Assembly: GCA_963809875.1 (NCBI GenBank)
Contig: CAWELC010000012.1
Location: forward strand, 16,479-80,478
Length of the DNA: 64,000 nucleotides
DNA from: an uncultured delta proteobacterium
GTDB lineage: Bacteria; Desulfobacterota; Zymogenia; Zymogenales; Zymogenaceae
Direction of reading: 5' to 3'
Shown: piece after piece, positions 5,728 to 62,247 of the stretch
How the letters are laid out: every line of letters begins with the position of its first letter
How positions within the stretch are numbered: the stretch's first letter is position 1
Notes under the pieces: generated by a model
Databases searched by the model: none
The model's input: only the letters and a program-made list of their open reading frames with translations
What the model was told of the DNA's origin: nothing
Made by a program: the position numbers and the translations under genes

Positions 5728-5735
5728 AAGCGCCA

Positions 5736-11292: not shown

Positions 11293-11383
11293 GGAAGCTC
11301 CTTACCTCTTTTGGATATCCTAGCGTCTTTGCCGGAAAATTGCAAGCCGTTTTTCCTTGACACGGGCAGACGATGGGGAGAGT

Positions 11384-12283
11384 ATGAGCGACATGAAAAA
11401 AATCGTGATATTCATCCTGCTTGCCTCGATCGCGGCCGCGTGGGGCTGTGCCGCGTTCACACCGAGGCCGGCGGTCTACAAGAATGACGCGCTCAACGAG
11501 GTCTTCTGGGCCGACGAGACGTTTGCCGCCGAGCTGGCCCGAATCCCGGGCGTGAACACACCCACATCTCCGCTTGCCGCGGGACTGCCTGCCCTCTGGG
11601 CCGACTATCGGAGCGGAGGCTACAAGGACGCGTTTGAGAAGATCCTCGGCACCCCAAACCCCGAGGCCCGGGCCTACTGCGCCCCCCTCGAGGCGATCCT
11701 GTGGCTCTATGCCGATAACCCCGCGTCCGCCCGGGAGCTCCTGGCCGACTACGACCTGGAACGGCTCCTGGCGGCGTCATGGGGGGGATGCACAGGGAGC
11801 CGCTGGGACGAGTGGGAGGAGATCCGCGCGCGCCTCTCGGTCCCGGCGCTGTGCGCCTACTACACGAAAAAGGCCCTCAAGTATATCCCCGAGCGCAACG
11901 ACGGCAAGAACTACCTGCAGTCGCCCTATGAAACGATCCTCATGAAGGGCGGGGACTGCGAGGATTTTGCCGCGCTGATCGTCGAGGCCCTCGAGTACGG
12001 GGGCTGGTATGCCCGCCTCTTTACCGTGGATATCTCCCGAGATATGAAGAAGCTCCCGGATTCTCACACGGTGGCATGCTACCGGGACGGGGGCAAATGG
12101 TATTTTATCCAGGGGTACGACGGGAAGTTCCTTGCCGGTGGGGTGACCGGTCCCTTTGACCAGGCCAACGACATGGCCGATCATATCGCCGGCAGCATCG
12201 GAGGGGAGACCTACTATTTCTATATCGATACGGTCCTCGAGTTTATCAAGGCCTATCAGCCCCTCAACCGGGGAAGGCCCTGA
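11384..12283 (+). CDS. Lipoprotein with transglutaminase-like cysteine-protease core
   Basis: Lipobox (LLASIAAAWGC). GGDCEDFAALIVEAL ... DSHTVACY (Cys/His core). SD ggggag upstream of the ATG at 11384. Confidence 0.55.
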   Translation: MSDMKKIVIFILLASIAAAWGCAAFTPRPAVYKNDALNEVFWADETFAAELARIPGVNTPTSPLAAGLPALWADYRSGGYKDAFEKILGTPNPEARAYCAPLEAILWLYADNPASARELLADYDLERLLAASWGGCTGSRWDEWEEIRARLSVPALCAYYTKKALKYIPERNDGKNYLQSPYETILMKGGDCEDFAALIVEALEYGGWYARLFTVDISRDMKKLPDSHTVACYRDGGKWYFIQGYDGKFLAGGVTGPFDQANDMADHIAGSIGGETYYFYIDTVLEFIKAYQPLNRGRP

Positions 12284-19359: not shown

Positions 19360-19935
19360 CTATTTCTTTTCGGAGAGGCGCTTCTTGCTCTCCTCGATGT
19401 ACCGCTTTGATTCCTCATCGTACCCGAAACCGGGGTACTTGGTGATCACATCCTGAAACCGGACGATCGCCGCGTTGAATTCTCCCTTGTCGAAATAGTA
19501 GACGCCGACGTTGTAGCTATAGAGCGCAAGCCTTTCGTGGCAGAGCCTGAGGTAGCTCATGGCGTTGGAGACGTATTTGCTGTTGGGATACATGAGGATC
19601 AGCTGAGAGAATTTTTCGGCGGCCCTTTCCGTATTTGACTGGTCGCGCTTTGTGTCCTCGGAGATCTTGAAATAAGCCAGGCCCTCCCTGAAAAGCGCGT
19701 AAGGGATATTCTCGTTGAGGGGGTGCTTCTTGATGAAGTTGTCGTACGCGACGACCGCACTCGCGTAGTCTTCTTTAGTAAAATAATTCTCGGCGGTGGA
19801 GAGGTCGGCTTCCAGGACCGGGACCGGCTGGCTATCGTCCCTGATGACGTTGTCCGGCCCGCCGCCGCATGCCGCCAGGGAGGCGATAAGGACGACCGAC
19901 AGGATCACCGCAAAGAATGTACGATCATAGGTCAT
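19360..19935 (-). CDS. bamD: Outer membrane protein assembly factor BamD-like lipoprotein
   Basis: Lipobox (LIASLAAC), TPR-like repeats, YfiO/BamD-like ALFREGLAYFK..DQSNTERAAEKFSQLILMYPNSKY..A. The ATG at 19935 (MTYDRTF) is preferred. Confidence 0.65.
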   Translation of the reverse strand: MTYDRTFFAVILSVVLIASLAACGGGPDNVIRDDSQPVPVLEADLSTAENYFTKEDYASAVVAYDNFIKKHPLNENIPYALFREGLAYFKISEDTKRDQSNTERAAEKFSQLILMYPNSKYVSNAMSYLRLCHERLALYSYNVGVYYFDKGEFNAAIVRFQDVITKYPGFGYDEESKRYIEESKKRLSEKK

Positions 19936-20105
19936 AGTATTTCTCCCGTCTGTTTTGTTGGGTATGCACTCGGTGTACGTTAACATCGAATGCGCGGTTT
20001 TGTCAACTAAATTCCTTGCGCGGTCCCCCCGTGGTCGACTTTGTACCGGCGCATGAAACGGTGAAACGGCCGAGTGCGGGCGCCGGCCCGCCGGCGGGTA
20101 AAAAG

Positions 20106-20135
20106 CAAAAAAGCCCCCGCGAGAGGGGCTTTTTC
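20106..20135. terminator. Bidirectional rho-independent terminator downstream of the XRE-family gene
   Basis: A-tract, agcccc-ccgcgaga-ggggct stem-loop, T-tract. Confidence 0.6.
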
Positions 20136-20150
20136 GTCAGCCGAGAGGCG

Positions 20151-31917: not shown

Positions 31918-33469
31918 ATGAGCGGCTCGGGCAGGACTAAGATCGGCACGGTCTGGCTGGTTGGGGCGGGGCCGGGAGACCCCGGGCTCGTGACGGTGAA
32001 GGCCGTGCGGGTGATGGCCGAGGCCGACGTGGTAGTCTATGACCACCTGGTGGACGAGGCGGTCCTTTCCCACGCACAGGATGCAGCCCGGATGATCTAC
32101 GCCGGTAAAGAAGGCGGTCGTCACAGCCTTTCTCAGGACGAGATCAACCGGCTTCTCGTCAGGGAGGCCAAGGCGGGCCGAAAGGTCGTGCGTCTAAAAG
32201 GAGGCGATCCGTTCGTCTTCGGGCGGGGCGGAGAGGAGGCACTGGCGCTGATCGGCGCGCAGATCCCCTTTGAGGTCGTCCCCGGGGTGACGTCGGCGAC
32301 GGCGGCCCCGGCATACGCCGGCATCCCCGTTACGCACCGGGGGAGGGCCTCGATGGTCGTCTTTGTGACGGGACATGAGGACCCGACCAAGGAGGACGAG
32401 TCGGTCGACTGGAGATACCTTGCGGGGTTTTCCGGGACGATCGTGGTCCTCATGGGGGTCAAGCGGATCGAGGAAAACGTCGCCGCTCTCGTTGAGCGGC
32501 GGAAAATCGCCCGACACGCCGTGCGCCGTGATCTCCCGGGGGACGACCCCGGCGCAGCGGAGCGTTCGGGCGCCCCTTTCGGGGATCGCCGAGAAAGCTC
32601 GCCGGGGCGGCGTGACGGCCCCGGCGGTCCTGGTGATCGGGGAGGTGGCGGGCCTGATGGAGACCCTCTCGTGGTTCGAGAAGCTTCCCCTCTTCGGCAG
32701 GCGCATCATCGTCACGCGGGCGGACCACCAGGCGGCCGAGCTCGCCGACCGGCTGAGGGCCCTCGGCGCGCTGCCGGTGGGGCTTTCGACCATCCGGATC
32801 GCCCGGCCGGAAGACGAACGGGCGGCCGAGGCCGCGGTGGCGACGGTTTCCGACAACGATATGGCCGTCTTCACCAGCCCCAACGGGGTGGAGTCCTTCT
32901 TCGAGGGGCTCGATCGGCTCGGGCGCGACGCCCGGGCTCTGGGTGGAGTGACCGTGGCGGCCATGGGTCCGGGGACGGCGGCCTCCTTGAGCAGACGCGG
33001 GATCGTCCCCGATATCGTCCCGGACCGGTTTGTGGCCGAGGCCCTGGCCGGGGCGATCATCGCGGCGGGGGCGGACGGCAAGCGTATCCTCCTCTTTCGG
33101 GCCGAGGGGGCCCGGGACGTGCTCCCCCGGCTCTTGACCGAGGCGGGGGCCTCGGTGTCGGACGTCGGGGCCTATCGCTCGGTCGCTCCGGAGACGTCCG
33201 ACGGACAGTTTACCCGTGCGTTCGAGGGGGCGGATCTCGTTTCCTTCACGAGCGGCTCGTCTGCGACAAACCTCAGGGAGATGATCGACCTCAAGAGAAA
33301 AGGGGGGCTCGACCTTCCGGAGTCCTCCATTCCGCCGGCCGCCTCGATCGGACCGGTCACGTCGGCCGCGGCCGCGGGCGCCGGCTTTTCAGTCGAGATA
33401 GAGGCGTCCGAACACACCATCGGGGGACTGGTGAAGGCGCTGGTTTCCCACTATTCGGAAAAGACATGA
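31918..33469 (+). pseudogene. cobA-hemD: Uroporphyrinogen-III C-methyltransferase / uroporphyrinogen-III synthase fusion (cobA-hemD), one +1 frame break as assembled
   Basis: VGAGPGDPGLVTVKA and GGDPFVFGRGGEE in the frame of 31918. From ~32494-32503 the conserved continuation GKSPDTPCAVISRGTTPAQR..VLVIGEV and the HemD domain (RIIVTRA..FTSPNGV..FTSGSSA) are in the +1 frame (ORF 32375..33469). Confidence 0.85.
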
Positions 33470-34647
33470 TCGGTATCTCAAAACTCTATATGGGCGCGGT
33501 CGAGGAATCGGACGTCCTCCGGTACGGGGGCGACTCCAAACGGCTCCCCTCGCACCTTCTGCAATTTTCGGCCGACAAGAAACCGGTGGTGGTCTTCAAC
33601 GCCACCCGGCGGTGCAACCTCAAGTGCATCCACTGCTACAGCGACTCCGAGAACAAAGATTACGCCGGAGAGCTGACCACCGGCGAGGTAAAAACGCTCA
33701 TCGACGACCTGGCGGGATTCGGCGCTCCGGTGATCCTCTTTTCGGGCGGGGAGCCGCTGATGCGGCCCGACCTGGAAGAGCTTATCGCCTACGCCGTGGG
33801 CCGGGGTATGCGGGCGGTCATCTCCACCAACGGGACCCTCATTACCGGGGACCGGGCGGCCCGGCTCAAAGACCTCGGGCTCTCATACGTGGGGGTAAGC
33901 CTGGACGGCCTGGAGGCGACCCACGACTCGTTTCGGAAGGTCGATGGGGCGTTCGCCCGGGCAATCGCGGGGGTGAAACACTGCCTCAAGCAGGGCATCA
34001 AGGTGGGACTGCGCTGCACCATCAACACGCTCAACGCCCACGAGATCGGGCCGATCTTCGACCTGATGGAGACCGAAAGGATCCCCCGGGTCTGTTTCTA
34101 TCACCTGGTCGTCTCGGGCCGGGGCGCCGCGATCCGTCAGATGATGCTCTCCCATGCCCAGACCCGGGCGGCGGTCGACCTGATCATGGACCGGACGAAG
34201 GATCTTGCCGACAGGGGATTTCAGCCGGAAGTCCTGACGGTCGACAACCACGCCGACGGCCCCTACGTGTATCTCCGGCTCTTGCGGGAGGACCCCGGGA
34301 GGGCAGCCGAGGTTCTGAAGCTCCTCAGGCTCAACCAGGGCAACTCGTCGGGCGTGGGGATCTCGTGCGTCAGCTTCGACGGGGAGGTCTACGCCGACCA
34401 GTTTTGGAGGGGCCGCTCCTTCGGCAACGTAAGGCGGCGTCCCTTCTCGGAGATCTGGACCGACCTCTCGAACCCCCTGATGGCCCGGCTCAAGGAAAAA
34501 AAGAAATATGTCACCGGCCGCTGTGCGACCTGTCGGTGGCTTGACGTGTGCGCCGGAAACTTCCGGGCGCGGGCCGAGGCTATGACGGGCGACACCTGGG
34601 CGTCGGACCCCGCCTGTTATCTGACCGACGATGAGATAGCCCCGTAG
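33466..34647 (+). CDS. Radical SAM/SPASM enzyme of the NirJ / AhbC / AhbD (tetrapyrrole-modifying) family
   Basis: The ATG at 33466 overlaps the hemD stop (ATGA). NATRRCNLKCIHCY (CxxxCxxC). C-terminal Cys cluster CATCRWLDVCAGNFRA...DPACY. It is the last 394 codons of the artefactual 909-aa ORF 31918..34647. Confidence 0.8.
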   Translation: MIGISKLYMGAVEESDVLRYGGDSKRLPSHLLQFSADKKPVVVFNATRRCNLKCIHCYSDSENKDYAGELTTGEVKTLIDDLAGFGAPVILFSGGEPLMRPDLEELIAYAVGRGMRAVISTNGTLITGDRAARLKDLGLSYVGVSLDGLEATHDSFRKVDGAFARAIAGVKHCLKQGIKVGLRCTINTLNAHEIGPIFDLMETERIPRVCFYHLVVSGRGAAIRQMMLSHAQTRAAVDLIMDRTKDLADRGFQPEVLTVDNHADGPYVYLRLLREDPGRAAEVLKLLRLNQGNSSGVGISCVSFDGEVYADQFWRGRSFGNVRRRPFSEIWTDLSNPLMARLKEKKKYVTGRCATCRWLDVCAGNFRARAEAMTGDTWASDPACYLTDDEIAP

Positions 34648-34819: not shown

Positions 34820-36680
34820 ATGAACCGTTATGATGTCATCGTCATCGGGGCGGGGCACGCCGGCATCGAGGCGGCGCTGGCCGCCGCCCGCATGGGGGCC
34901 TCTGCCCTCATGCTGACCGGAAACATCGACACGATCGGCCAGATGTCGTGCAACCCGGCGGTGGGGGGGCTTGCCAAGGGACAGCTGGTCAAGGAGATCG
35001 ACGCCCTGGGGGGCCAGATGGGCCTTGCCACAGACGCGGCGGGTATCCAGTTTCGGACCCTCAACACCACCAAGGGGCCGGCGGTCCGCTCCTCCCGGGC
35101 CCAGGCCGACCGGGCGGGATACCGCACCTACATGAAGGCACTCCTCGAAAACACGCCCGGTCTTTCAGTCCGGCAGACCATGGCCAGGGCGATCCTGGCC
35201 GAGGGAGGGAGAGTCGTGGGGGTGCTGACCGAGTACGGGGAGGAGTTCCCGGGTTCGGCCGTCGTCATCGCCGCGGGGACCTTTCTCAAGGGAATGGTCA
35301 GGATCGGCCGGAGTTCGTTTGGAGCCGGCCGACTGGGCGATCCCCCTTCCGAGTTTCTCTCCGATTCGCTCAGGGAGCTCGGTTTCGTCGTCGAGCGTTT
35401 CTCCACGGCCACGACGCCCCGGCTCGACGGCGCGACGATCGACTACTCGAAGACGACCGATGCAGCCCCTTCAGTGGCCGATCACGCCGTTTTCGTTTCG
35501 CTCGGGACCCATCGACCGGGACCAGCTCCCCTGCCACGTGACCTACACCAACGCCCATACCCATGACGTGATCAGGAAGTGCATCGACAACGACGCGGTC
35601 TCGGAGGGGTGGCTGAACCGGAAAGGACCCCGCTACTGTCCTTCCATCGAGGAAAAGGTGCTGTTCTTCCCCGAAAGAATTCGCCACCAGATCTTCCTGG
35701 AGCCCGAAGGGTTCCATACGACCGAGGTCTATCCGAACGGACTGTTTACAACCCTCGGCATAGAAGAGCAGATGAGGATCCTCTCGGCCATCCCCGGCCT
35801 GGAGGAGACGCGAATGACCCGGCCCGCCTATTCCATAAAATACGACTACGTGCCGCCGACCCAGCTTTTGCCGACGCTGGAGACCAAGCTTGTCTCCGGG
35901 CTCTTTCTCGCGGGCCAGGTCAACGGGACCTCCGGCTACGAGGAGGCGGGCGCCCAGGGGATCGTGGCGGGGATCAACGCGGCCTGCCATGTCATGGGCC
36001 GGCCGCCGCTTATCCTGTCCCGCTCGGACGCCTACATCGGCGTGCTCATAGACGACCTGGTGACCAAGGGCACCAACGAGCCGTACCGGATGTTCACGTC
36101 CCGGGCCGAATATCGCCTGGCCCTGCGGGAGGGAAACGCGATCTTCCGCCTCACGCCGAAGGGCAGGGAGCTCGGGCTGATCGGCGACGACGCCTGGAGC
36201 CTATTCAGCGAGAAGAAGCGGGCGCTGGAACGGGGCCTGGCCCTGATGGAAGAGCCGCTCTACCCGACGAGGGCGACCAACCAGCGCCTGGCGGACCGGG
36301 GCCTTTCGCCCATCATCAATAAGATGACCCACGCCGACCTGCTGCGGCGCCAGGAGGTGACCGGGGCGATCATCACGGGTATCGTGCCGGGGTTGGTGGA
36401 TCTTGCCGACGACATCCTTTCGGAGGTCGAGGTCCAGACCAAGTATGACGGATACCTCCGGCGCCAGGACGAAGAGATCGGCAGATTCAGGAGGCTCGAG
36501 GGGCTGCCGATCCCCGGGGATTTCCGCTACCGGGGGCTCGCGGGCCTCTCGGCGGAGGCCGCCGAAAAACTCGAAGAGACCAGGCCCCTGTCGATAGGCC
36601 AGGCCTCGCGCATCCCCGGCGTGACGCCGGCGGCCGTCTCGATCATCATGATCCATCTCAAGAAGCGCAGGGCGATGTGA
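34820..36680 (+). pseudogene. mnmG: tRNA uridine 5-carboxymethylaminomethyl modification enzyme MnmG (GidA), one +1 frame break as assembled
   Basis: YDVIVIGAGHAGIEAA and NPAVGGLAKG in the first frame. PFSF..LPCHVTYTNAHTHDVIR, GPRYCPSIEEKV and the rest are in the +1 frame. Break at ~35455-35490. Confidence 0.9.
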
Positions 36681-36827: not shown

Positions 36828-36857
36828 TTGACGAATCAAGGAAGAGCGCATTAAAAT
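36828..36857 (+). promoter_or_regulatory. Sigma70-like promoter, cassette 1
   Basis: TTGACG, 18-nt spacer, TAAAAT. Confidence 0.5.
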
Positions 36858-37001: not shown

Positions 37002-38774
37002 ATGAGCTTAAAGAGAATATCGTTCTCAATTTTTCTCGCCGTCTTTTTCGGCACGGTTTTCCTTGTCTCGGGAGCCTTTGCCGGCGAGGCGATGTACATC
37101 GAGGAGCCCAATTTCTACAGCGTCCCCAAGACGATCATGGTCTCCGACAAGCCCGAATGGACGCCGGATTTCCGGGATAACCCGGCGCTCATGGGCACGG
37201 ACAAGGACGTCCGGTTCCTCATGGATCTCTACTATACGGGGAGCTACACCAAGGTCGATCTGGACAACTTCTTCACCTATCATATCGGGGGGATCCCCGT
37301 GTTCGGCGCCGGTTTCGGCTCCGGTAAGGAGGAGTACGTCACCAACGGGGTTGGCGCCGACGTCGGCGTGGTCCTCAAGGTGACCGACCGGTCCGAGCTC
37401 GGGGTCATCATGGGCTACCGCTACCTCAACACCGACATGGAGGGCGACCAGGTCTACCGGTGGTCTTCCCTCGGTGCCACCGGAAGTATGACCTCATCGC
37501 TGGAGCGGGAGATCAGGTCCAGCGATTTCTCCCTCGGGCTCCTCTATAACATCGAGTTTACCCCGGCCTTTTCGCTCGGGATGGGACTCAAGTACGGCCG
37601 CGGCGTCCACGAGAGCAACTTCTCGCTCGACGGTACCGGGAGCTCTGTTCCCTTCGGACCCGAGGTGATCACGATGGACCGCGAGCTGACGCTGGATTAC
37701 CACCGGTTTGCGCCCGTGCTGGGCGTATCGGTCAAGCCGAACGATGCACTGACCATTGACGCATCGGTAGAGGGCGGGTTCATCTTCGGCGGGGTGGATA
37801 AGGGCGACACCCTGAACAGCACCGTTGCTGTCGTGCCCGCTATCTTCAGACCGCACGTGGAGAACCTCGCATCCCGCGACCTTTCCGGGTGGGATATCAA
37901 AACGGGTCTTAAAGTGACGTACGCCGTCTCCGATAGACTCTCGCTGCCGTTCTTCGCTGATTTCGCCTACGGCGATACGAGATGGGAAGTCGACGGCACC
38001 GCGGCAGGCAACTTCTTCCCCGTCGACCTGCCGGAGATCGTCTATGCGCCCGGGCCGGTGGACTATGAGAACGACAGTGCCCTGTGGCACATCACCGGTG
38101 GGCTCGGCGCGGACTTCACCATGGCGGGATGGGATACGGAGGTGACCGGCGCATACACCCACTGGCAGAACCGCAACGACTACGACCAGAGCAATGTCAA
38201 CAGCACCGTGCTTTTTGCCCCGATCGGCGCGACCTCAGTCTTTGAGGAGAGCATCGTCGAGAAACGGGACATTATCAGCCTCGGGCTGATGATGAAAAGG
38301 GACTTCACGCCGTCCTTTGCCGCCGAGCTCGGGCTGCGCTACGACCTGGGGTTTGGCAGGATGGACCTCGACCGGGATTACAGGTCCGCACTCGCGTTTT
38401 TTGGGGCTCCGGCGCCGACCCTGTCGCTGTCCTATACCGGCAAAGACGTCTACCAGAACCTGACCTTCTCCACGCGGATGGAGTTTAAACCGTCAGACCG
38501 GCTGACGCTCGCGCTCGGAGGTGCCGTGACCTTCCCGCTTGACGCCCTCGATTACGAGCTGGAGGGAGACGTATCCGGAATCGGCACCAGCGTTCCTCCA
38601 TTCTTACAGTTGGGGTTTGACGGCCCGACGGACCTCGACTCCAAGACCACACAGTGGCAGTACGGCGGCTATTTCATGTTGACTTATGAGCTCGGCGCCC
38701 CGACGCCGGTGCCCCCGCCCGCCGCTCCCGCGCCGATCATCGAGCCCAAGCTTGAGCCGATGAGCCAGAAGTAG
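37002..38774 (+). CDS. Predicted secreted outer-membrane beta-barrel protein, unrecognised family, paralog 1
   Basis: SD aaaggagg upstream of the ATG at 37002. Signal peptide (FLAVFFGTVFLVSGAFA|GEA). Alternating hydrophobic/aromatic beta-strand-like segments with many G/Y/D/N/T residues. Barrel-end-like ...YGGYFMLTYELG followed by the tail APTPVPPPAAPAPIIEPKLEPMSQK. Confidence 0.6.
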   Translation: MSLKRISFSIFLAVFFGTVFLVSGAFAGEAMYIEEPNFYSVPKTIMVSDKPEWTPDFRDNPALMGTDKDVRFLMDLYYTGSYTKVDLDNFFTYHIGGIPVFGAGFGSGKEEYVTNGVGADVGVVLKVTDRSELGVIMGYRYLNTDMEGDQVYRWSSLGATGSMTSSLEREIRSSDFSLGLLYNIEFTPAFSLGMGLKYGRGVHESNFSLDGTGSSVPFGPEVITMDRELTLDYHRFAPVLGVSVKPNDALTIDASVEGGFIFGGVDKGDTLNSTVAVVPAIFRPHVENLASRDLSGWDIKTGLKVTYAVSDRLSLPFFADFAYGDTRWEVDGTAAGNFFPVDLPEIVYAPGPVDYENDSALWHITGGLGADFTMAGWDTEVTGAYTHWQNRNDYDQSNVNSTVLFAPIGATSVFEESIVEKRDIISLGLMMKRDFTPSFAAELGLRYDLGFGRMDLDRDYRSALAFFGAPAPTLSLSYTGKDVYQNLTFSTRMEFKPSDRLTLALGGAVTFPLDALDYELEGDVSGIGTSVPPFLQLGFDGPTDLDSKTTQWQYGGYFMLTYELGAPTPVPPPAAPAPIIEPKLEPMSQK

Positions 38775-38805
38775 CAATCCGATACGCATTGCCTGCGAAA
38801 CACGA

Positions 38806-38837
38806 ACGGGACGGCGAGAGCCGTCCCGTTTCCTTTT
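38806..38837 (+). terminator. Rho-independent terminator, cassette 1
   Basis: acgggacggc-gaga-gccgtcccgt followed by TTCCTTTT. Confidence 0.7.
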
Positions 38838-38933: not shown

Positions 38934-38962
38934 TTGACTGATCGAGGAGACGACATTAAAAT
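38934..38962 (+). promoter_or_regulatory. Sigma70-like promoter, cassette 2
   Basis: TTGACT, 17-nt spacer, TAAAAT. An A/T-rich stretch (gaaaaactaactatttta) lies upstream. Confidence 0.5.
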
Positions 38963-39102: not shown

Positions 39103-40884
39103 ATGAACATCAGAAAAGCATCGTCTCTTGTTTTTCTTGCGGTCCTCACGGTGATGCTGTTGCCTGCTTCGGGGGTTTTCGCCGGGGAGGCTATGTACAT
39201 CGAGGAACCGAACTTTTATAGCGTCCCCAAGACGATCATGATCCAGGACAAACCCGAATGGACTCCGGATTTCCGGGATAACCCGTCGCTCATGGGCACG
39301 GACAAGGACGTCCGGTTCCTCATGGACCTCTACTACACGGGGGGCTACACCAAGGTCGATCTCGACAACGACTTCACGTACGGTCTCCTCGGGGTCCCCG
39401 GGCTCACCGGGTTCGGTACCGGCTCCGGCCTGGAGGAATACGTGACCAACGGCGTGGGCGCCGACCTGGGGGTAGTGCTCAAGACCTCCGACCGGTCCGA
39501 GCTCGGGGTCATCATGAGTTACCGCTACCTCAATACCGACATGGAGGGGGACCAGCTCTACCGCTGGAGTTTCCTGGGCATAACCGGGAACATAACCTCG
39601 TCGCTCGACCGTCAGATCAAGTCCAGCGATTTTTCCCTCGGACTGCTCTATAACGTCGAGCTTACCCCGGCGTTTTCGCTCGGGATGGGGCTCAAGTACG
39701 GCTACGGGATCCACGAGAGCGACTTCGGACTTGACGGAAGCGGGACCTCCAACGCCTTCGGCCTCGAGGTAACGACCATGGACCGCGAGCTGGTGCTGGA
39801 CTACCACCGCTTCGCCCCCGTGCTGGGCGTCACGGTGAAGCCCTCCGACGCCTGGACGATCGAGGCTTCGGTCGAGGGCGGGTATCTCTTCGGCGGGGTG
39901 GACAAGGACGACTCGCTGACCGATTCGGCCGTTTTCATACCCCCTACCGACAGAACCCACTCAGAGGTCCTGGACTCGCGTGACCTGAGCGGCTGGGACA
40001 TCGGCACTTATGTCAAGGTGGCCTATGCCCTGTCGGACGATCTGTCGTTCCCGTTCTTCGTCGATTTCGCCTATATGGACACCACCTGGGAGGTTGATGG
40101 CTCTGGGACCGGGACCTTCTATCCCTACAATCTTCCGGAGATCATCTACGTCGCCGGGCCGGTGGACTACGAGAACCACAACGCCCTCTGGTACATTAAC
40201 GGGGGGTTCGGGGTAGACTTCGTGGCCGGCGGATGGGACATGGAGGCGATCGCCGCCTACACCCACTGGCAGAACCACAACAAATACGACCAGAGCAACG
40301 TCAACAGCACCGCGCTCTTTGCCCCGATCGGCTCTTCGTCGGTCTTTGAGGAAGACGTCGTCGAGAGGCGGGACTTCATCAGCCTCGGGCTTGATATGAA
40401 AAAGGAATTCAGCCCGGCCCTGACCACCCAGTTCGGGATTCGGTACGACGTCGGGTGGGGCAGCATGGATCTCGACCGGGATTACACGTCCCGGTTCGCG
40501 TTTGTCGGTGCTCCCGTGGTGCCGACGCTGTCGGCCTCGTACCACGACACAGACCTGTTCCAGAACCTGACCCTGACCGTCCGCACGGACCTCAAGGCCA
40601 CCGACCGGCTGACGCTGACGCTGGGGGCCAACGGGACCTTCCCGATCGACTCCCTCAACTATGATCTGGACGGAAACGCTTCGACTTCGATCCAGGCGAC
40701 TCCCCTGTTCCCATCCCGGTTGGACTTCAACGGGCCATCGAGCCTCGATGCGGATACCTCCGAGTGGCAGTACGGCGGCTATTTCATGCTGACCTACGAG
40801 CTGGGGATACCCAAGCCGGTGCCGCCGGCCACGGCCCCCGCTCCGATCATCGAGCCCAAGCTGGAGCCGATGAGCCAGAAGTAG
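39103..40884 (+). CDS. Predicted secreted outer-membrane beta-barrel protein, unrecognised family, paralog 2
   Basis: SD agaggagg. Signal peptide (VMLLPASGVFA|GEA). Same architecture as paralog 1. Tail IPKPVPPATAPAPIIEPKLEPMSQK. Confidence 0.6.
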   Translation: MNIRKASSLVFLAVLTVMLLPASGVFAGEAMYIEEPNFYSVPKTIMIQDKPEWTPDFRDNPSLMGTDKDVRFLMDLYYTGGYTKVDLDNDFTYGLLGVPGLTGFGTGSGLEEYVTNGVGADLGVVLKTSDRSELGVIMSYRYLNTDMEGDQLYRWSFLGITGNITSSLDRQIKSSDFSLGLLYNVELTPAFSLGMGLKYGYGIHESDFGLDGSGTSNAFGLEVTTMDRELVLDYHRFAPVLGVTVKPSDAWTIEASVEGGYLFGGVDKDDSLTDSAVFIPPTDRTHSEVLDSRDLSGWDIGTYVKVAYALSDDLSFPFFVDFAYMDTTWEVDGSGTGTFYPYNLPEIIYVAGPVDYENHNALWYINGGFGVDFVAGGWDMEAIAAYTHWQNHNKYDQSNVNSTALFAPIGSSSVFEEDVVERRDFISLGLDMKKEFSPALTTQFGIRYDVGWGSMDLDRDYTSRFAFVGAPVVPTLSASYHDTDLFQNLTLTVRTDLKATDRLTLTLGANGTFPIDSLNYDLDGNASTSIQATPLFPSRLDFNGPSSLDADTSEWQYGGYFMLTYELGIPKPVPPATAPAPIIEPKLEPMSQK

Positions 40885-40914
40885 CAGGCCGATGCGCGTT
40901 GTTACGAAACACGA

Positions 40915-40943
40915 ACGGGACGGCGAGAGCCGTCCCGTTTTTT
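40915..40943 (+). terminator. Rho-independent terminator, cassette 2
   Basis: Identical stem-loop acgggacggc-gaga-gccgtcccgt followed by TTTTT. Confidence 0.75.
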
Positions 40944-41057: not shown

Positions 41058-41086
41058 TTGACTGATCAAAGCCAAGACATTAGACT
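41058..41086 (+). promoter_or_regulatory. Sigma70-like promoter, cassette 3
   Basis: TTGACT, 17-nt spacer, TAGACT. Same A/T-rich upstream stretch as cassette 2. Confidence 0.45.
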
Positions 41087-41228: not shown

Positions 41229-43002
41229 ATGAACGTTAGCAAAGCATCATCTCTTGTTTTCCTCGTGGTTCTTACGGTGATATTGTTGCCCGTTTCGGGG
41301 GCCTTCGCCGGAGAGAGCATCTTCATCGACGAGCCCAATTTCTACAGCGTCCCCAAGACGATCGTGATCCAGGACAAACCCGAATGGACTCCGGATTTCC
41401 GGGACAACCCGGCGCTGATGGGCACGGACAAGGACGTCCGGTTCCTCATGGACCTCTACTATACCGGGGGATACACCAAGGTTGACCTCGACAACGACTT
41501 CACGTACGCTACCGCCGGGGTCACCGGGTTCGGGACCGGCTCCGGCCTGGAGGAATACGTGACCAACGGCGTGGGCGCCGACCTGGGCGTGGTGCTCAAG
41601 ACCTCCGACCGTACCGAGCTCGGGGTCATCATGGGCTACCGCCACCTCAACACCGACATGGAGGGCGACCAGGTCTACCGCTGGAGCTTTTTTGGTTTCA
41701 CCGGCAACATGACCTCCTCGCTCGACCGCCAGATCACGTCCAGCGATTTTTCTCTCGGGCTGCTCTATAACATCGAGCTTACCCCGGCCTTTTCGCTCGG
41801 GATGGGGCTCAAGTACGGCTACGGGGTCCACGAGAGCGACTTCGGACTTGACGGAAGCGGGACCTCCCTCATCTTCGGACCGGAGACGACGACCATGGAC
41901 CGCGAGCTGGTGCTCGACTACCACCGCTTCGCCCCCGTGCTGGGGGTTTCCGTGAAGGCCTCCGACGCGTGGACGATCGAGGCGTCGCTGGAGGGCGGGT
42001 ATCTCTTCGGCGGGGTGGACAAGGACGACGTGCTGATCGACTCGTTTCCCGGCGGCCTACCGCTCAACGACAGGACCCACACGGAGGTGCTGGACTCGCG
42101 CGACCTGAGCGGGTGGGACATCGGCACCTATGTCAAGGTGACCTACGCCCTCTCGGACGATCTCTCGTTGCCGTTCTTCGTCGATTTCGGCTATATGAAC
42201 GCCGCCTGGGAAGTGGACGGCTTCGGGACCGGGACCTTCATTCCCTACAACCTCCCCGAGATCGTCTACGTCCCCGGGCCGGTCGACTACGAGAACCACA
42301 ACGCCCTCTGGTACATCAACGGGGGGTTCGGGGCGGACTTCGTGGCCGGCGGATGGGACATGGAGGCGATCGCGGCCTACACCCACTGGCAGAACCATAA
42401 CAAGTATGACCAGAGCAACGTCAACAGCATCGCGGTCTTCGCCCCGATCGGCTCGGTCTCGGTTTTCGAGGAGGACGTCCTGGAGAGGCGGGACATCATC
42501 AGCCTTGGGCTTGATATGAAAAAGGAATTAAGCCCGGCCCTGACCGCCCGGTTCGGTATCCGGTACGACATCGGGTGGGGCAGCATGGAGCTCGACCGGG
42601 ACTATAACTCCCGCTTCGCCTTCATCACCCCTCCCGCGCCGCCGCTCGCGGCCTCGTACGACGATAGCGGATCTCTTCCAGAACCTGACCCTGACCGTCC
42701 GCACGGACATCAAGGCGAGCGATCGGCTGACTCTGTCCCTGGGCGCGAACGGGACATTCCCGATCGACTCCCTCGACTATGATCTGGACGGAAACGCGTC
42801 CAGCTCGCTCACGGCGTCTGTGCCATTCTTCCCCCGGCTGCTGTTCAACGGGCCGTCGAGCCTCGATGCGGATACCTCCGAGTGGCAGTACGGCGGCTAT
42901 CTCATGCTGACCTACGAGCTGGGCGTCCCCAAGCCGGTACCACCGGCCGCGGCCCCCGCGCCGATCATCGAGCCCAAACTGGAGCCGATGAGCCAGAAGT
43001 AG
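41229..43002 (+). pseudogene. Outer-membrane beta-barrel paralog 3, one +1 frame break near the C-terminus as assembled
   Basis: Collinear with paralog 2 up to ...LAASYDDS. After ~42666-42671 the homologous DLFQNLTLTVRTDIKASDRLTLSLGANGTFPIDSLDYDLDGN...WQYGGYLMLTYELGVPKPVPPAAAPAPIIEPKLEPMSQK is in the +1 frame (ends 43002). Confidence 0.6.
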
Positions 43003-43033
43003 CAGTCCGATACGCGTTGCCTACGAAACACGA

Positions 43034-43060
43034 ACGGGACGGCGAGAGCCGTCCCGTTTT
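43034..43060. terminator. Terminator of cassette 3, abutting the stop codon of the convergent DUF3795 gene
   Basis: Same stem-loop followed by TTT. The minus-strand TGA is at 43062-43060. Confidence 0.65.
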
Positions 43061-44601: not shown

Positions 44602-45375
44602 CTACGTCCCCTCAGTCCCCACTTCGATCTCCCTGAGCTCCATCTTCTTGAGCTTTTCAACCGTCTCCGGGGGGAGCTTTGTCTGTCCCTTGTCGAGGGA
44701 TTCCTTGAGCTCCTTGAGCTTCTTGACGGCCTTGTTATAGTTCTCCCTGAAAAGCGCCTTGTCCGGCTTGAGCTCGACGGCCTTGGTGAAGTTATCCAGG
44801 GCCTTGAAGTAATCTCCGTCCCAGTTCATGTAGATCTCACCGAGGTTGTTATAGGCCTTGGCGATCCTCGGGTCCTTCTTTTCCTTATCGGTGGCGATGA
44901 TGTACTGGCTTTTCGCCTTGTCCCACTGCTTGAGTGCTTCGTAGGCCTGGCCGAGGCTGTAGTAGTTCCAGCCGTAGCTCGGGTCAAGGGCGATCTCGGC
45001 CTTATATGATTCGATCGCCTTATCGTAATCCCCGCGGGCCCAGAAGACGTAGGCGAGAGAGTTGTTGACGTACTTCATCTTGGGGTTGAGGCCCCTGGCC
45101 TCGGTGAACTCGGCAAAGGCGTTGTCGAAGGTCGTGTCCTTCTTGTCGAAATCCGCGTAGAGATAGGCGACGCCGAGCAGGTAATGGAGCGAAGCGTCGC
45201 CGGGATTCTCTTTGACAAGCCCTTCGTATTTCACGATCAGCGGCGAAAGGTTTCCCTCAAGGCGCGCCTTCTCGATCTCTATGACCTTTGCCTTGAGCGG
45301 GTCTTCCTGGGCGAAAGCGGCGGCCGATCCCACGAGCAGCGACAGCACGGTTATGCAGACGAGAATCCTCTTCAT
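44602..45375 (-). CDS. Secreted tetratricopeptide repeat protein
   Basis: Signal peptide MKRILVCITVLSLLVGSAAAFA|Q followed by TPR repeats. Confidence 0.65.
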   Translation of the reverse strand: MKRILVCITVLSLLVGSAAAFAQEDPLKAKVIEIEKARLEGNLSPLIVKYEGLVKENPGDASLHYLLGVAYLYADFDKKDTTFDNAFAEFTEARGLNPKMKYVNNSLAYVFWARGDYDKAIESYKAEIALDPSYGWNYYSLGQAYEALKQWDKAKSQYIIATDKEKKDPRIAKAYNNLGEIYMNWDGDYFKALDNFTKAVELKPDKALFRENYNKAVKKLKELKESLDKGQTKLPPETVEKLKKMELREIEVGTEGT

Positions 45376-45513
45376 GGTTACGTGATCCTTAAAGATGTAT
45401 GTTAGAGAAATTCTACCAGAGGCGTGCCGAATGTTCAAGGGATAATCGGGTTTTTCCTTTGACCGCGTTCGGAAATGATACTATACTGATAAAAACGGTA
45501 ACGGGAGGCGACG

Positions 45514-48024: not shown

Positions 48025-48052
48025 TTGACATTTAAAGACGCTGTGATACTAT
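48025..48052 (+). promoter_or_regulatory. Sigma70-like promoter P2 upstream of the LolA-like gene
   Basis: TTGACA, 16-nt spacer, TACTAT. SD aaggagag precedes the ATG at 48075. Confidence 0.4.
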
Positions 48053-48074
48053 ATCTCAAAGGAGAGGGAGCACG

Positions 48075-48860
48075 ATGAAAATGAAATCGTCGATCGTACC
48101 GGCCGCAGGAGTGCTTATCGCTTTCTTGATTGCGCTACCCGCGGCATCGCTGGCCCTTACCGGCACCGAGATCATGACCAAGGTCCACGACCGCGACAAC
48201 GGGAAATCGTCCATCATAGAGAGCAGGATGCTTCTGTTCAACGATAAGGGACAGAGCAAAGAGCGGGTCGTGAGGGCCGTCCGTAAGGAATACGGGGACC
48301 TCAGCAAGTCGCTGATCCGCTTCCTGTCTCCGGCAGACGTGAAAGGGACCGGGTTTCTGATCTGGGAAAACGCAAATCGGGACGACGACCAGTTCCTCTA
48401 TCTGCCCGCCCTCAAGCAGGAACCACGCCGGATCGCGTCCTCGGAAAAGAGCTCACGCTTCATGGGAACGGAGTTCACCTACGAAGACCTCGAAAACCGC
48501 AAGGTCGACAAAGACAATCACAAGCTGTTGAGGGAAGAGAAGCTCGACGGCAAGCAGGTCTACGTCGTGGAGAGCGTCCCCATAAAGGGCTCGGACTCGC
48601 AGTACGGAAAGCTCATCTCCTGGGTGCGCCCGGACGTCTGGATTCCGGTCAAGATCGAGTTTTACGATAAGAACGGCGCGCTCCTCAAGGTCCTGACCGT
48701 CAAGAAGCTCGAACAGGTCCAGGGTATCTGGACCACCAGTGACAGCGTCATGGACAACGTCCAGGACAAGAAGAAGACCGAGCTTTTCCTGGACAAGGTG
48801 CAGTATAACGCCGACATCCCCGATGAATATTTCACCGAGCGCTACCTCAAGAGGGACTAG
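48075..48860 (+). CDS. Outer-membrane lipoprotein-sorting (LolA-like) family protein
   Basis: Signal peptide. FLSPADVKGTGFLIWEN..DDQFLYLPALKQEPRRIASSEKSSRFMGTEFTYEDL matches the LolA-like pattern. Confidence 0.7.
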   Translation: MKMKSSIVPAAGVLIAFLIALPAASLALTGTEIMTKVHDRDNGKSSIIESRMLLFNDKGQSKERVVRAVRKEYGDLSKSLIRFLSPADVKGTGFLIWENANRDDDQFLYLPALKQEPRRIASSEKSSRFMGTEFTYEDLENRKVDKDNHKLLREEKLDGKQVYVVESVPIKGSDSQYGKLISWVRPDVWIPVKIEFYDKNGALLKVLTVKKLEQVQGIWTTSDSVMDNVQDKKKTELFLDKVQYNADIPDEYFTERYLKRD

Positions 48861-48861
48861 G

Positions 48862-50646
48862 GTGAGAGGGACGTTCAGGCGGATACGAAAGACCGGCATG
48901 CGATGGGTGCCGGTCTTTTTTTTCATCGGGCTCCTCGCTTCCCGCCGGGGCCACGGCGGGAGACGACGCGACCGGCAAGGCGACCGATCCCTTTTGGGCG
49001 CCCGTTCACTACGATGAGTCCCGGGCCGAAATTAACGAGATCAGGGCAGGTTTCGAGAAGGTCTCGGCCGATATCGACCGCCGGATCGAGGAGGTCAGGC
49101 GGCGCATCATCGACGCGGGGAGCCCCGCCCTCCGGGAAGAGCTCCTGGGCGAGCTCTCCGATCTCGAGCGGCGGCGCAGCGACGCGCTGTCGGGCGCGCT
49201 CACGGCGGTCGGCGACGTGAGGGTCGCCGATACGGTCAGGCACGTCGCCGAGACGATCGCCGCCCCGCCGCCCGCCTACCTCGCGCCCGACCGGCTTTTG
49301 GCCGGCCGGCTCCGTCTCCGACCTCTTCGGGCCCGAGGTCGATCTGGCGGGGTACCTCAAGATCCGGCTGGCCGGAGATATCTCGATCGACAATAAATTT
49401 GAGAACCTTTTCGAGGCCGAGCCCAAGGTCTTCCTTTCCCTCAAGTATCCCGTCAACGACCGGCTCCTCGTCTTCATCTCCACCTACGCGAAGTACGACT
49501 ACGCCACCGGCGGCAGCAGTCGCTATGATCACGATATCGTCCTCTTCGAGGCCTACCTCGACGTCTTTTTCGACAAGCTCGACCTGAGGGTCGGAAACCA
49601 GATCATCTCGTGGGGGAGGGCCGACGTCATCAATCCGACGGACGTCATCAACCCCCTGGACCTCACCAATATCCTCACGGGGGACGTCGGCGAGAAGAAG
49701 GTCCCGAGCGTCGCCGTGAAGCTCGACTACTACGCACGGCAACACGACCGTGGAGCTGGTGGCGCTGCCTTTCTTCCAGGAGTACAAATACGACCTGGTC
49801 GGCTCGGACTGGGCGATCTTTCACTACGGCCTCTTTACGGACTTCGTCGGGGGGGCCTTCCCCTGGTCGGAGTTCCTGGACGACGAATCACAAAAGCTGA
49901 TCAACCGGGCGGGCATCGCATTTTCATTGCCCAATAAACCCACCTACAGCCCGGAGAACATCCAGGGCGGTGCGCGGATCTCGTCGACATACCGGGGGTG
50001 GGATTTTTCCTTTTCGTACCTCAACGTCTATGACCGTCTGCCGACCGTCACGGTATCGGACGCCCTGAGAAACGCTATCCTGACCAACAATGTTCCCGCC
50101 TACCTGGCGGGCCTCACACCGGCGGAGTTGGAAAGGATCGTATCGCTGGACTATCATCGGTACCACATGGTCGGGTTTGATTTCGCCACGACCTGGGGCA
50201 GCTGGGGGATCCGGGGAGAGGCGGGGATCTTCCTCGACCGGTTTACCTACACCAAGACTCTGGACGCGACGAAAAACAACTATATCTTCTATGTCCTGGG
50301 AGTCGACCGGCTCTTTAAGGGCGACTTCTACGTCAACGCCCAGTTCATCCAGAAGATCATCTTCGACTACGGCCATGACTTGATCGAGGACGAGTTCCAG
50401 AACGGCGTGAGCCTCTACGCCTATAAGGAGTTCGAGCTCTTCGGGAAGAAGATCATCCCCGAGGTCAGGGCCATCTACGAGATCAACGGCGACGACTTCT
50501 TCATCATGCCGAAGGTCACTTATAAATGGTCGGATGCCCTTGAATTTTCCCTGGGGTTGAATATATTCGAGGGAGAGCGCGACACGATCTTCGGTTATTT
50601 TTCTGATAACGATCAGGCCTTTTTTGAGGTAAAATATATATTCTAG
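48862..50646 (+). pseudogene. Secreted outer-membrane barrel protein (DUF1302-like ISWGRADxINPxD motif) split across four frames (three +1 breaks); may be one or two genes
   Basis: Signal peptide (MRWVPVFFFIGLLAS) in frame 1. Coiled-coil-like DESRAEINEIRAGFEKVSADIDRRIEEVRRR.. in frame 2. DLFGPEVDLAGYLKIRLAGD..LRVGNQIISWGRADVINPTDVINPLD in frame 0. Barrel C-terminus (ORF 49750..50646, ends ..AFFEVKYIF) in frame 1. Breaks at ~48945, ~49260-49310 and ~49730-49745. Confidence 0.55.
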
Positions 50647-60083: not shown

Positions 60084-60953
60084 TCAGTAGAGTCCCTTGC
60101 CGGCGAGCTCGGCCGGGTTGATCCTGTTATAGTTAAGGCGCGCGCCGAAGTGAAGATGGGCGCCGGTAACTCTGCCGGTAGCGCCGACAAGGGCCACGAT
60201 TTGTCCCCGTTTTACCGATTCTCCTTCGGTGACCAGGATATCGGAGAGGTGAAAATAGATCGTGTAGAGACCCTGGCCGTGATCGATGAATAGGGAGAGC
60301 CCGGAAAGATACCTGTCCGTCGCCAGGGCCACCCGGCCGTCGTTGGCGGCGGCAACCGGTGTCCCCGTGACCGACGAGATATCGATTCCCTCGTGGGAGT
60401 AAGGCGTGTTGTCGTTGACGTAGCGCGTCATCCCGAAAGACGTGGTTATCCCGCCGACCAGCGGCATCATGAAGGGCTGAGACCAGAGCCGGCGGGGGGA
60501 TTCGGTGGCGTACAGCGCGGTGGAGATTTCGGCCTCGCGCTGGATGCGTGCGAGTGTCGCCTTGTCATACGACACCCACTTGTCGTCCAGAGTCAGGTGC
60601 TGAACCGAGAAGCTCCCCTTGACGACCGTGATGCTTCTTGTCACGGTTTCGGTGGCGCCGTTCATCCTCTTGAGTGTAACCAACAGGCTCTTCACCTCGG
60701 GCGACGAGGCAATGTCGACGCCCAAAAGCCCCGTAAAAGTCCCGGGGACCCCGGTCGGATTAAAGTAGACGCTGCGTCGTGCGAAGAGCCCCCTGGCCGA
60801 GGCGATCGTATCGTCCCCGGAAAGGGTGATGAGGTAGACCTCGCCCTGGATGACCCGGTCGGGGAAGTCGATGTTCACAGTGGAGGCCGCCGCGGGCCAC
60901 ATAAGCGAGATCAACACGGCGGCCGTGACAAGGCCGAATCTAGGATTCTTCAT
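60084..60953 (-). CDS. Secreted M23 family metallopeptidase
   Basis: Signal peptide (GLVTAAVLISLMWPAAAS). HEGIDI, GATGRVTGAHLHFG. Confidence 0.85.
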   Translation of the reverse strand: MKNPRFGLVTAAVLISLMWPAAASTVNIDFPDRVIQGEVYLITLSGDDTIASARGLFARRSVYFNPTGVPGTFTGLLGVDIASSPEVKSLLVTLKRMNGATETVTRSITVVKGSFSVQHLTLDDKWVSYDKATLARIQREAEISTALYATESPRRLWSQPFMMPLVGGITTSFGMTRYVNDNTPYSHEGIDISSVTGTPVAAANDGRVALATDRYLSGLSLFIDHGQGLYTIYFHLSDILVTEGESVKRGQIVALVGATGRVTGAHLHFGARLNYNRINPAELAGKGLY

Positions 60954-62247
60954 CGGGTTCCTTTCTCGAGATGTCGGCAAAAAGCGTCCCCTTATGAAGC
61001 CTGATCCGCGCGGTCCGGCCGACCTCGATATCCGACGCGCTGCGGACGATCACTCCGTCGTCGGCCCGCTCGGTGATGGAGTAGCCGCGGGCCAGCACCG
61101 CCTCCGGCGAGAGCCGGGTCAGGGCGTGGGAGAGGGAAGCCAGGGCCGATCTTCTGCCGGAAACCATTGTCTCCATTGCCGAGCCGAGGCGAGACGACGC
61201 CATAGCAAACCGGAGCCTGAGGCGGTCGATGTCCTGCCTCGGGCTTTTGACCCGCCCGCCGAGGGATCCCAGCCGCTCCCGGTGCCGGGAGATCAGGTGT
61301 CTCATCTGTGCGGTCAGGCGCTGCTCGGTCCCGTCCAGCGTCATCAGGAGATCATCGAGCCTCGGGGTGACAAGCTCGGCGGCGGCGGTGGGGGTGGCGG
61401 CTCTTACGTCGGCGACGAGATCCGCGATGGTGAAGTCGATCTCGTGGCCGACGGCCGAGATCACCGGGATCTTCGAGGCAAACAGGGCATCGGCGACGGC
61501 TTCGGTGTTGAATGCCCAGAGGTCTTCAAGGGAGCCCCCCCCGCGGCCCACGATCATGACATCGGCAAGCCCCATCCGGTTGACCAGATCTACCCCCCGG
61601 GCAATCTCGTGCTCGGCCCCTTCTCCCTGCACCCGGACAGGGACGACCAGGACGCGGCTTTTGGGCATCCTGCCGAAAATCACCTTGAGTATGTCAAAGA
61701 GGGCGGCGCCGGTGCCGGACGTCACCACGGCGATTCTCGCGGGGAGATAGGGGAGCGTCCTCTTGCGTCCGTCGGCAAAGTATCCTTTGGCGGCCAGGCG
61801 CTTCTTGAGCTCTTCGAGGGCCAGCATCATCGCCCCGATGCCGACCGGCTCGATGTGGTCGGCGATCAGCTGGTATTCCCCCCGGGGAGGATATACCCCG
61901 ACGCGCCCCAACACCAGGACGTGCTGACCGTCGGCGGGTCGCCACGGGGGCCGGTCGGAGCGTTGCTCGAGCCCGGGTGGGAGGCTCGTCCCGGCATCGC
62001 CGCCCGCACTCCTTGAACCCGGCGCTCCCGATAGGCCGAGGAGGCGCGCCTGGTTCTTGAAGAGGACCACGCGAATCTGGGCCGCGTCGTCCTTCAGGGT
62101 GAAGTAGAGATGACCCGACGAGGGGGCCGCCAGTCCCGAGATCTCGCCCTGGACCCAGACGAAGGGGAAAGCATCCTCCAGGAGGCCGGCTATCAGGCCC
62201 GTCAGCTCGCCGACGGTCATGATCGTACGGAAATTTATGTCATCCAT
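60940..62247 (-). CDS. xseA: Exodeoxyribonuclease VII large subunit
   Basis: FVWVQGEISG, GHLYFTLKD, RGGGSLEDLWAFN. Confidence 0.92.
   Translation of the reverse strand: MDDINFRTIMTVGELTGLIAGLLEDAFPFVWVQGEISGLAAPSSGHLYFTLKDDAAQIRVVLFKNQARLLGLSGAPGSRSAGGDAGTSLPPGLEQRSDRPPWRPADGQHVLVLGRVGVYPPRGEYQLIADHIEPVGIGAMMLALEELKKRLAAKGYFADGRKRTLPYLPARIAVVTSGTGAALFDILKVIFGRMPKSRVLVVPVRVQGEGAEHEIARGVDLVNRMGLADVMIVGRGGGSLEDLWAFNTEAVADALFASKIPVISAVGHEIDFTIADLVADVRAATPTAAAELVTPRLDDLLMTLDGTEQRLTAQMRHLISRHRERLGSLGGRVKSPRQDIDRLRLRFAMASSRLGSAMETMVSGRRSALASLSHALTRLSPEAVLARGYSITERADDGVIVRSASDIEVGRTARIRLHKGTLFADISRKEPDEES

Follow-up and report, generated by a model that had tools for sequence, protein, structure and literature searches.

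Three tandem outer-membrane barrel paralogs (A, B and C; all on the same strand, region 36.9-43.1 kb) are encoded in a 64-kb stretch of DNA from an uncultured delta proteobacterium (by 'the window' we mean this whole stretch); past the end of the barrel each continues into a short Pro-rich tail with a near-invariant peptide, …APAP-[V/I]IEPKLEPM-S-x-x (peptide form APAPVIEPKLEPMSKN). We found that this tag is a portable C-terminal module of one uncultured Desulfobacterota lineage (Candidatus Zymogenia and relatives). Sequence comparisons indicate that its conservation acts at the peptide level. As to function, we tentatively read the tail as a periplasmic tether from barrel to peptidoglycan, probably acting via a lysine and an L,D-transpeptidase, a reading to which we give somewhat less than an even chance.

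In translations of the 3′ ends of the window genes (38625-38777, 40735-40887 and 42853-43005) 25 residues follow …WQYGGY[FL]MLTYELG in all three copies, so that the boundaries first drawn for the tails (Table) were exact, each being 25 codons and a stop. The last 16 residues, APAPIIEPKLEPMSQK, are the same in A, B and C, as the preliminary description of this DNA had stated; since A and B are only 68% identical over the whole protein, 16 identical residues out of 16 are well above background. The tail is conserved in orthologs as well: P0005, a metagenomic ortholog at 58% identity, retains 15 of the 16 residues. No further copy of the tail was detected in a six-frame search that covered the whole window.

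The preliminary description had raised the idea that further proteins of the lineage share the tag. The same tail was indeed found there, both by degenerate-DNA scans and by homology searches. The scans for IEPKLEPM, run over the GTDB species genomes and the JGI metagenomes, returned 53 genuine instances, which amount to 51 distinct DNA sequences and include the window copies with their orthologs. In all 53 a beta-signal-like end (…GYMFDIC-, …FDIYG-) leads into a Pro-rich linker, and exactly three codons separate the motif from the stop; matches in unrelated taxa, where the motif was internal or lay in spurious open reading frames (ORFs), were discarded. The genomic instances came from three metagenome-assembled genomes (MAGs) only, JAFGAS01 (Candidatus Zymogenaceae Zod_maxbin.0311), CAWKCL01 and CAVTLK01 (both 'uncultured delta proteobacterium'), the remainder being metagenomic. 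Candidatus Zymogenaceae belongs to the class Candidatus Zymogenia, Desulfobacterota (bioRxiv 10.1101/2021.03.22.436540). In the delta proteobacterium MAGs we saw up to 6 tandem tagged genes per 8-kb locus.

Altogether 147 distinct tagged C-termini were collected; their hosts make up five or more barrel families, with lengths of about 280 to 590 amino acids. BLAST clustering separated a family of ∼285-residue barrels, families of ∼345-400 residues, a BBP7-type family and the 590-residue family of the window; BLASTP between the carrier families aligned nothing significant besides the terminal 11-mer. In double-barrel versions of 535 residues the tag stands at the extreme C-terminus alone. With the ∼285-residue family as query, a homology search gave 109 matches, and virtually all full-length members, down to 36% identity, were tagged; the tag is thus retained between proteins only 36-40% identical. 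In some tagged families 6-12 genes of a genome stand in tandem.

Arrays of the ∼285-residue barrel run head to tail with at least 4-6 genes, a spacing of ∼1.04 kb and one terminator per gene (loci L009, L018, L022 and L033; contigs CAWKCL010000001.1 and CAVTLK010000003.1). Several of these array copies are frameshifted in the long-read MAGs concerned. Directly after the beta-signal most tagged proteins have a Cys (…GYMFDIC-, …YEFGC-; P0053-P0161, L008-L086, e.g. L033 5216-4359), replaced by Tyr or Phe in some families; the window copies have no Cys there (…YELG-[AIV]).

The module consists of a beta-signal, a Pro/Ala/Val spacer, the core P-x-[LI]-x-P-M and 1 or 3 variable residues. Measured from the beta-signal, the tail has 22-28 residues (mode 24-25; 147 tagged ends), and its linker is composed of Pro (43%), Ala (26%) and Val (13%). 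Position counts were made on the 142 distinct endings with three residues after Met, numbered back from the C-terminus. Pro at positions −13 and −9 and Met at −4 were present in all 142 endings and Pro at −5 in 141; Ile at −11, Glu at −10 and Lys at −8 occurred in 136 each, Leu at −7 in 138, Glu at −6 in 137 and Ser at −3 in 134. Positions −2 and −1 are variable, the commonest endings being SKN (80), SQK (8), SSK (8), SFK (8), SQN (7), SYK (6) and SMK (6). Five of the 147 tags have one residue only after Met (…TPMK, …TPMR), and there are rarer core variants of the type …PQL[TV]PM…. As a background, column identity in the family alignments averages only 40-47%. The tag was matched by no Pfam or NCBIfam model, and literature searches found no description of it.

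Among the 51 distinct DNA instances all degenerate codons of the tag vary, Leu being written by 5 codons, and the 3′ untranslated regions (UTRs) and terminators differ completely between families. This combination shows that selection is on the peptide rather than on DNA or RNA. One could think instead of a tail with no peptide function: a 3′ cassette of tail, 3′ UTR and terminator might have been duplicated, or homogenised by gene conversion, not long ago, or the tail codons might overlap an RNA or DNA element under selection. Indeed, as DNA the window genes and their orthologs at L001 and L003 closely resemble one another in the tail, in the terminator hairpin and in parts of the 3′ UTR. However, amino acids that stay constant while every degenerate codon varies, 3′ ends that are wholly different from family to family, and a tag that persists at such low protein identity make this explanation extremely improbable, and codon variation together with the unrelated 3′ UTRs led us to reject an RNA- or DNA-level explanation.

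The window barrel itself gave only generic, sub-threshold barrel matches to Pfam and NCBIfam (a weak one to Pfam OMP_b-brl_2). Its family is small: an exhaustive profile search of 1.84 billion representative proteins found 47 relatives. An AlphaFold2 model of paralog B, built with 21 homologs (predicted local distance difference test, pLDDT, 85.5; predicted template-modelling score, pTM, 0.82), has a short N-terminal segment with N60-P61-S62 and 16 long strands in residues 70-567, while the tail, residues 568-593, is coil outside the barrel with pLDDT <50. A tail of the ∼285-residue family is likewise coil outside the barrel in a model with pLDDT 90, the fold of which resembles 10-12-stranded barrels. 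The concern that the tail could be part of the barrel or a plug is answered by the paralog B model, in which the strands stop at residue 567 and a low-pLDDT coil follows, neither strand nor plug. By the general rule for bacterial barrels, the modelled tail would lie on the periplasmic side.

The best PDB fold matches of paralog B (Foldseek) were FadL and TodX, with E about 1e-9 and template-modelling (TM) scores of only 0.38-0.48. FadL has 14 strands, compared with 16 in the model. Asn60 and Pro61 are invariant across the window family, with Ala or Ser at 62 (mature residues 33-35); we take this position to match the NPA motif of the FadL hatch, as PDB entry names (N33A, P34A and delta-NPA mutants) indicate. 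FadL membership was found neither with Pfam (Toluene_X) nor with NCBIfam FadL models, nor by sequence matches to PDB. As no sequence method supports it, kinship to FadL is a lead only; the other tagged families are clearly not FadL.

That the tail comes after the beta-signal, as first described, is confirmed by the many same-family relatives that stop exactly at …YEF (P0006, P0011, P0012, P0014-17, P0020, P0022-26). These untagged proteins have the final aromatic residue of a canonical barrel and the tagged ones do not. Most full-length relatives of the window family are untagged; in the family alignment some members run on with G-C-P-V-A-x-P-P…APAPVIEPKLEPM-S-[FY]-K or a similar sequence. In a barrel-only neighbour-joining tree (no bootstrap) the tagged members fell into two separate clades, each beside untagged ones, which suggests that this family gained or lost the added tail more than once.

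What could such a tail do? Detailed knowledge of how outer membrane and wall are held together is confined to few Proteobacteria (Lpp, OmpA, Pal) and some Terrabacteria (OmpM); covalently tethered barrels are a recent discovery, with the N-terminus nearly always as the point of linkage. For the tail we infer a spacer function, an enzyme and a bond, as follows. The stiff Pro/Ala/Val-rich spacer would span the gap between outer membrane and cell wall. A dedicated enzyme of the periplasm (most likely an L,D-transpeptidase) would recognise the conserved peptide [V/I]-I-E-P-K-L-E-P-M and couple the epsilon-amino group of a tail lysine to meso-diaminopimelate (mDAP) of the peptidoglycan. Three lysines are candidate acceptors: that of the K-P next to the barrel end, that of EPKLEP, and the one in either of the final two positions. 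In this way abundant barrels of several families would staple the outer membrane to the wall.

A tether from barrel to peptidoglycan by a lysine in the C-terminal tail, which the preliminary description had proposed, has an experimental precedent. In Legionella pneumophila, Lpg1810 (OmpP1/FadL family) has a C-terminal tail, KTPAPPEKDIT, linked to mDAP via Lys, as shown by mass spectrometry and immunoblot, and similar tails were predicted in Methylorubrum and Rhodomicrobium (R. vannielii …DPVPALEPYK) (PMC11841132). The tagged proteins have the same layout: beyond the beta-signal the barrel is extended by a short tail, of predicted periplasmic location, that is rich in Pro and contains Lys. As in Lpg1810, a Lys comes directly after the barrel and a second one belongs to a P-E-K-like element; the tag form …EPKLEPMSYK is also reminiscent of the tail predicted for R. 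vannielii, …PALEPYK, and the best fold matches of the window barrel, at low TM scores, are FadL and TodX. The differences are that the tag tail is about twice as long (25 versus 11 residues), that it ends in an invariant motif of 8-9 residues, and that its carriers are five or more unrelated barrel families, not a single transporter family. Also, the cross-link has been demonstrated for Lpg1810, whereas the tag is known from sequences and models.

The Lpp box was the other precedent considered. In the Braun lipoprotein Lpp of E. coli and in Dickeya OutB the final residue has to be Lys, and the box is transferable and tolerates many substitutions (PMC12274547). The tag shares with it a short C-terminal peptide (of predicted periplasmic exposure), a Lys at or near the end and portability across carriers. 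The resemblance to a Braun-type attachment box did not hold further: the final residue, necessarily Lys there, is mostly Asn in the tag, the conserved part lies upstream (P-x-L-x-P-M), and the carriers are barrels, not lipoproteins or inner-membrane proteins.

The window copies end in …SQK, and a terminal Lys had been presented as the conserved feature; it is not, as the last residue is Lys in 45 of the 142 endings and Asn in 94. A preference for lysine in general is evident. One of the last two positions is Lys in 132 of 142 tags, and K-P follows the barrel immediately in ∼70%; Lys outnumbers Arg 88:2 in the linker and 132:1 in the two final positions, and at position −8 the ratio is 136:0, while the barrels of 115 tagged proteins favour Arg (4.15%, with Lys at 2.58%). 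Such a bias in the tail sequences would fit a need for primary amines.

Several observations weigh against a lysine-mediated tether. No lysine is invariant: Lys at −8 is replaced by Gln, Met or Asn in six tags, nine endings (SQN or SSN) have no basic residue among the last three, and the last 11 residues are devoid of Lys in P0119 (…PVLTPMR) and P0032 (…PQLTPMSQR). TonB has a Lys-Pro-rich periplasmic spacer without cross-linking, and since spacers of this kind exist the Lys bias is not proof of cross-linking. Neither a YkuD enzyme nor a conserved neighbour gene was found in the window or the tag-bearing loci. Pfam detected no YkuD, sortase or PDZ protease domain among 30 ORFs scanned in the window, a result that does not extend to the rest of the genome, a regular expression for the YkuD active site run on 593 kb of DNA gave spurious matches only, and an all-against-all BLAST of ORFs from 31 tag-bearing loci returned barrel families and antisense ORFs only; the neighbours on the contig of P0082 were unrelated. 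Finally, known L,D-transpeptidase substrates tolerate much sequence change (PMC12274547); by that comparison the invariant 8-mer exceeds the known needs of this chemistry. As a separate candidate for a partner we considered a secreted TPR protein (44602-45438) and rejected it, as it is syntenic only in L001 (close orthologs) and not near the tagged genes of other families.

A run of 8-9 consecutive near-invariant residues across unrelated hosts is typical of recognition of a peptide by a domain, and one could propose non-covalent docking, with IEPKLEPM on its stiff spacer being bound by a dedicated periplasmic or peptidoglycan-associated protein. Many barrels would then share one partner, either a 'split OmpA', having the wall-binding domain as a separate polypeptide, or an inner-membrane-anchored Tol/TonB-like protein. 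The variable last two residues, the lack of a single indispensable lysine and the tightly held tail length all agree with docking. So does the linker composition, which is that of an OmpA hinge, with a weak NCBIfam OmpA match over the barrel end and hinge of P0161. OmpA indeed has a barrel followed by a hinge of (Ala-Pro)n type, and the weak profile match covers that part of it; however, an OmpA_C domain (PF00691) was not matched after the hinge in the tagged proteins, which end 11 residues past the hinge and 25 residues past the barrel. We hold docking to be rather unlikely: no partner gene recurs beside the tagged genes, the existence of a partner is pure hypothesis, binding of such a motif is documented for no known domain, and a preference for Lys over Arg would not be expected if charge alone mattered. 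Recognition of the terminal residue by a PDZ-type domain or carboxylate clamp was considered separately and is unlikely, the last two residues being the least conserved part of the tag.

Conservation of the tag ends abruptly at Met (142 of 142), past which both sequence and length vary (three residues in 142 tags, one in 5); this pattern is the one expected of a leaving group. Accordingly, the tag might be a processing or sorting signal. A periplasmic protease or a sortase-like transpeptidase would cut after the invariant Pro-Met and release the 1-3 variable residues; alternatively, the tail would not act as a tether but be a targeting or quality-control signal read by chaperones, BAM (the machinery that assembles beta-barrels) or a protease sensing C-termini. 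The tag is confined to BAM substrates, all of its hosts having beta-signals, and the extension masks the C-terminal aromatic residue that is usual in barrels and that envelope-stress sensors read in E. coli. Like PEP-CTERM/exosortase, LPXTG/sortase and GlyGly-CTERM signals, the tag is a short near-C-terminal motif on many unrelated secreted proteins of one lineage. In contrast to these signals, though, its motif is succeeded by just 1 or 3 residues in 147 of 147 tags, with neither a hydrophobic transmembrane helix nor a basic cluster, and all of its carriers are integral barrels; no NCBIfam CTERM model matched the tagged proteins. No sortase gene was seen nearby in the window and the tag-bearing loci, nor an exosortase or S41 protease gene among the 30 window ORFs scanned and the 31 tag-bearing loci. 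Besides, the same genome encodes untagged barrels, such as the DUF1302-like one adjoining the LolA-like gene, which has the plain end …KYIF, and a stiff spacer of 14 residues is hard to explain for a mere degron. On balance we regard a role in processing or sorting as improbable.

The tether reading, as proposed here, has in common with the barrels of Alphaproteobacteria, Coxiella and Legionella that barrels rather than a lipoprotein would staple the outer membrane to the wall. In those groups the barrels are tethered via N-terminal Ala or Gly (cited in PMC12274547 and PMC11841132), by an N-terminal alpha-amino link, while the tag is C-terminal. The tagged proteins, too, keep a mature N-terminus Gly-Glu or Gly-Asp after …AFA. 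The N-terminus of a barrel is normally periplasmic as well. Since N-terminal Gly or Ala is the attachment site to peptidoglycan in barrels elsewhere, both ends of the tagged barrels may, by analogy, be anchoring points.

The signal peptide ends in …AFA before Gly-Glu in each of paralogs A, B and C, and an end …AFA followed by G-[E/D] is common to all tagged families (window 37002-37090, 39103-39190 and 41229-41315; P0053-P0161). Within the ∼285-residue family, 73 sequences have GEGSD without exception as their mature N-terminus.

What is new here is that five or more barrel families, unrelated to one another, carry a single near-invariant C-terminal module, which suggests that much of the lineage's barrel repertoire is handled by one recognition system. 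One could speculate further that a lineage-specific, undescribed envelope system exists in which a dedicated enzyme or receptor reads P-x-L-x-P-M on many barrels; to this we assign a low probability. In one version a transpeptidase would cut after Met, free 1-3 residues and join the barrel to the wall or another envelope polymer. If true, this would be a Gram-negative, barrel-specific analogue of sortase anchoring and not an Lpp-like lysine acceptor. The motif is short, transferable and easily searched, so the hypothesis is directly testable; it also provides a simple annotation marker for proteins that Pfam and NCBIfam leave unnamed.

Table. Positions in the window of the tagged barrel genes, their tails and control signals, and other envelope genes
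Feature	Position	Strand	Remarks
Outer-membrane barrel paralog A	37002-38774	+	590 aa; signal peptide ending …SGAFA, then GEA; C-terminus tagged; from ORF list and alignment
Outer-membrane barrel paralog B	39103-40884	+	593 aa; P0001; copy modelled by AlphaFold2
Outer-membrane barrel paralog C	41229-43002	+	frame broken near 42667; tail read from ORF 42820-43002
Tail of A	38697-38774	+	APTPVPPPAAPAPIIEPKLEPMSQK and stop; core 11-mer IEPKLEPMSQK at 38739-38771
Tail of B	40807-40884	+	IPKPVPPATAPAPIIEPKLEPMSQK and stop; core 11-mer at 40849-40881
Tail of C	42925-43002	+	VPKPVPPAAAPAPIIEPKLEPMSQK and stop; core 11-mer at 42967-42999
N-P-A of A, mature residues 33-35	37179-37187	+	family alignment
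N-P-A of B, mature residues 33-35	39280-39288	+	NPS; family alignment
N-P-A of C, mature residues 33-35	41406-41414	+	family alignment
Sigma-70-like promoter match upstream of A	36828-36857	+	consensus match only
Sigma-70-like promoter match upstream of B	38934-38962	+	consensus match only
Sigma-70-like promoter match upstream of C	41058-41086	+	consensus match only
Terminator hairpin downstream of A	38806-38831	+	ACGGGACGGCGAGAGCCGTCCCGTTT
Same terminator hairpin after B	40913-40940	+	also after orthologs in L001, L003
Same terminator hairpin after C	43032-43059	+	also after orthologs in L001, L003
BamD (YfiO)	19360-20136	-	
LolA-like protein	48036-48860	+	
DUF1302-like barrel	49720-50646	+	untagged
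M23 peptidoglycan peptidase	60084-61049	-	

With a promoter match and a terminator of its own, each paralog looks like a separate transcription unit. The hairpin ACGGGACGGCGAGAGCCGTCCCGT recurs with hardly any change behind each of the three paralogs and behind orthologs whose proteins share only 58-69% identity (hairpin regions 3′ of the stops: 38775-38831, 40885-40943 and 43003-43060). From the stop codon to the hairpin, the paralogs and L001 have a conserved 3′ UTR, which L003 does not share.

In paralog C an alignment of its DNA with that of B showed a single extra base that shifts the frame, so that the third tail sits in a separate ORF of 60 residues. Downstream of the extra base C is ∼90% identical to B in the shifted frame, which indicates either a very recent pseudogene or an assembly error. 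Because other frames in the window are disrupted as well, the frameshift of C may be an assembly error rather than the mark of a pseudogene.

One such disruption is in mnmG (gidA; tRNA modification; 34820-36680), which is split into two overlapping ORFs in different frames; one ORF matches positions 1-214 of the Pfam GIDA profile and the other 216-390, with the frameshift near 35.4-35.5 kb. Another is ORF 31918-34647 (909 residues), whose first part is a truncated tetrapyrrole methylase (positions 1-186 of the 212 in the TP_methylase profile), followed by an Arg/Gly/Pro-rich middle of ∼360 residues without any match and, at the end, by a radical-SAM/SPASM enzyme (AhbD/NirJ-like). It is probably an out-of-frame read-through of at least one gene, a further sign of frame errors in the assembly.

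Apart from the barrels, the envelope genes of the window comprise those for BamD, a LolA-like protein and an M23 peptidoglycan peptidase. Transglutaminase-fold enzymes can cross-link or cleave at Lys or Gln; a match to a transglutaminase-like core, below the Pfam cut-off (E 6e-4), was seen in ORF 11324-12283 (plus strand), which has an N-terminal hydrophobic segment, possibly a signal peptide, and for which no link to the tag was shown. Two adjacent paralogous ORFs without a Pfam match (5730-6560 and 6681-7400, both on the plus strand) have Cys-x-x-Cys N-termini (…FSCPHC… and …FSCPSCGK…).

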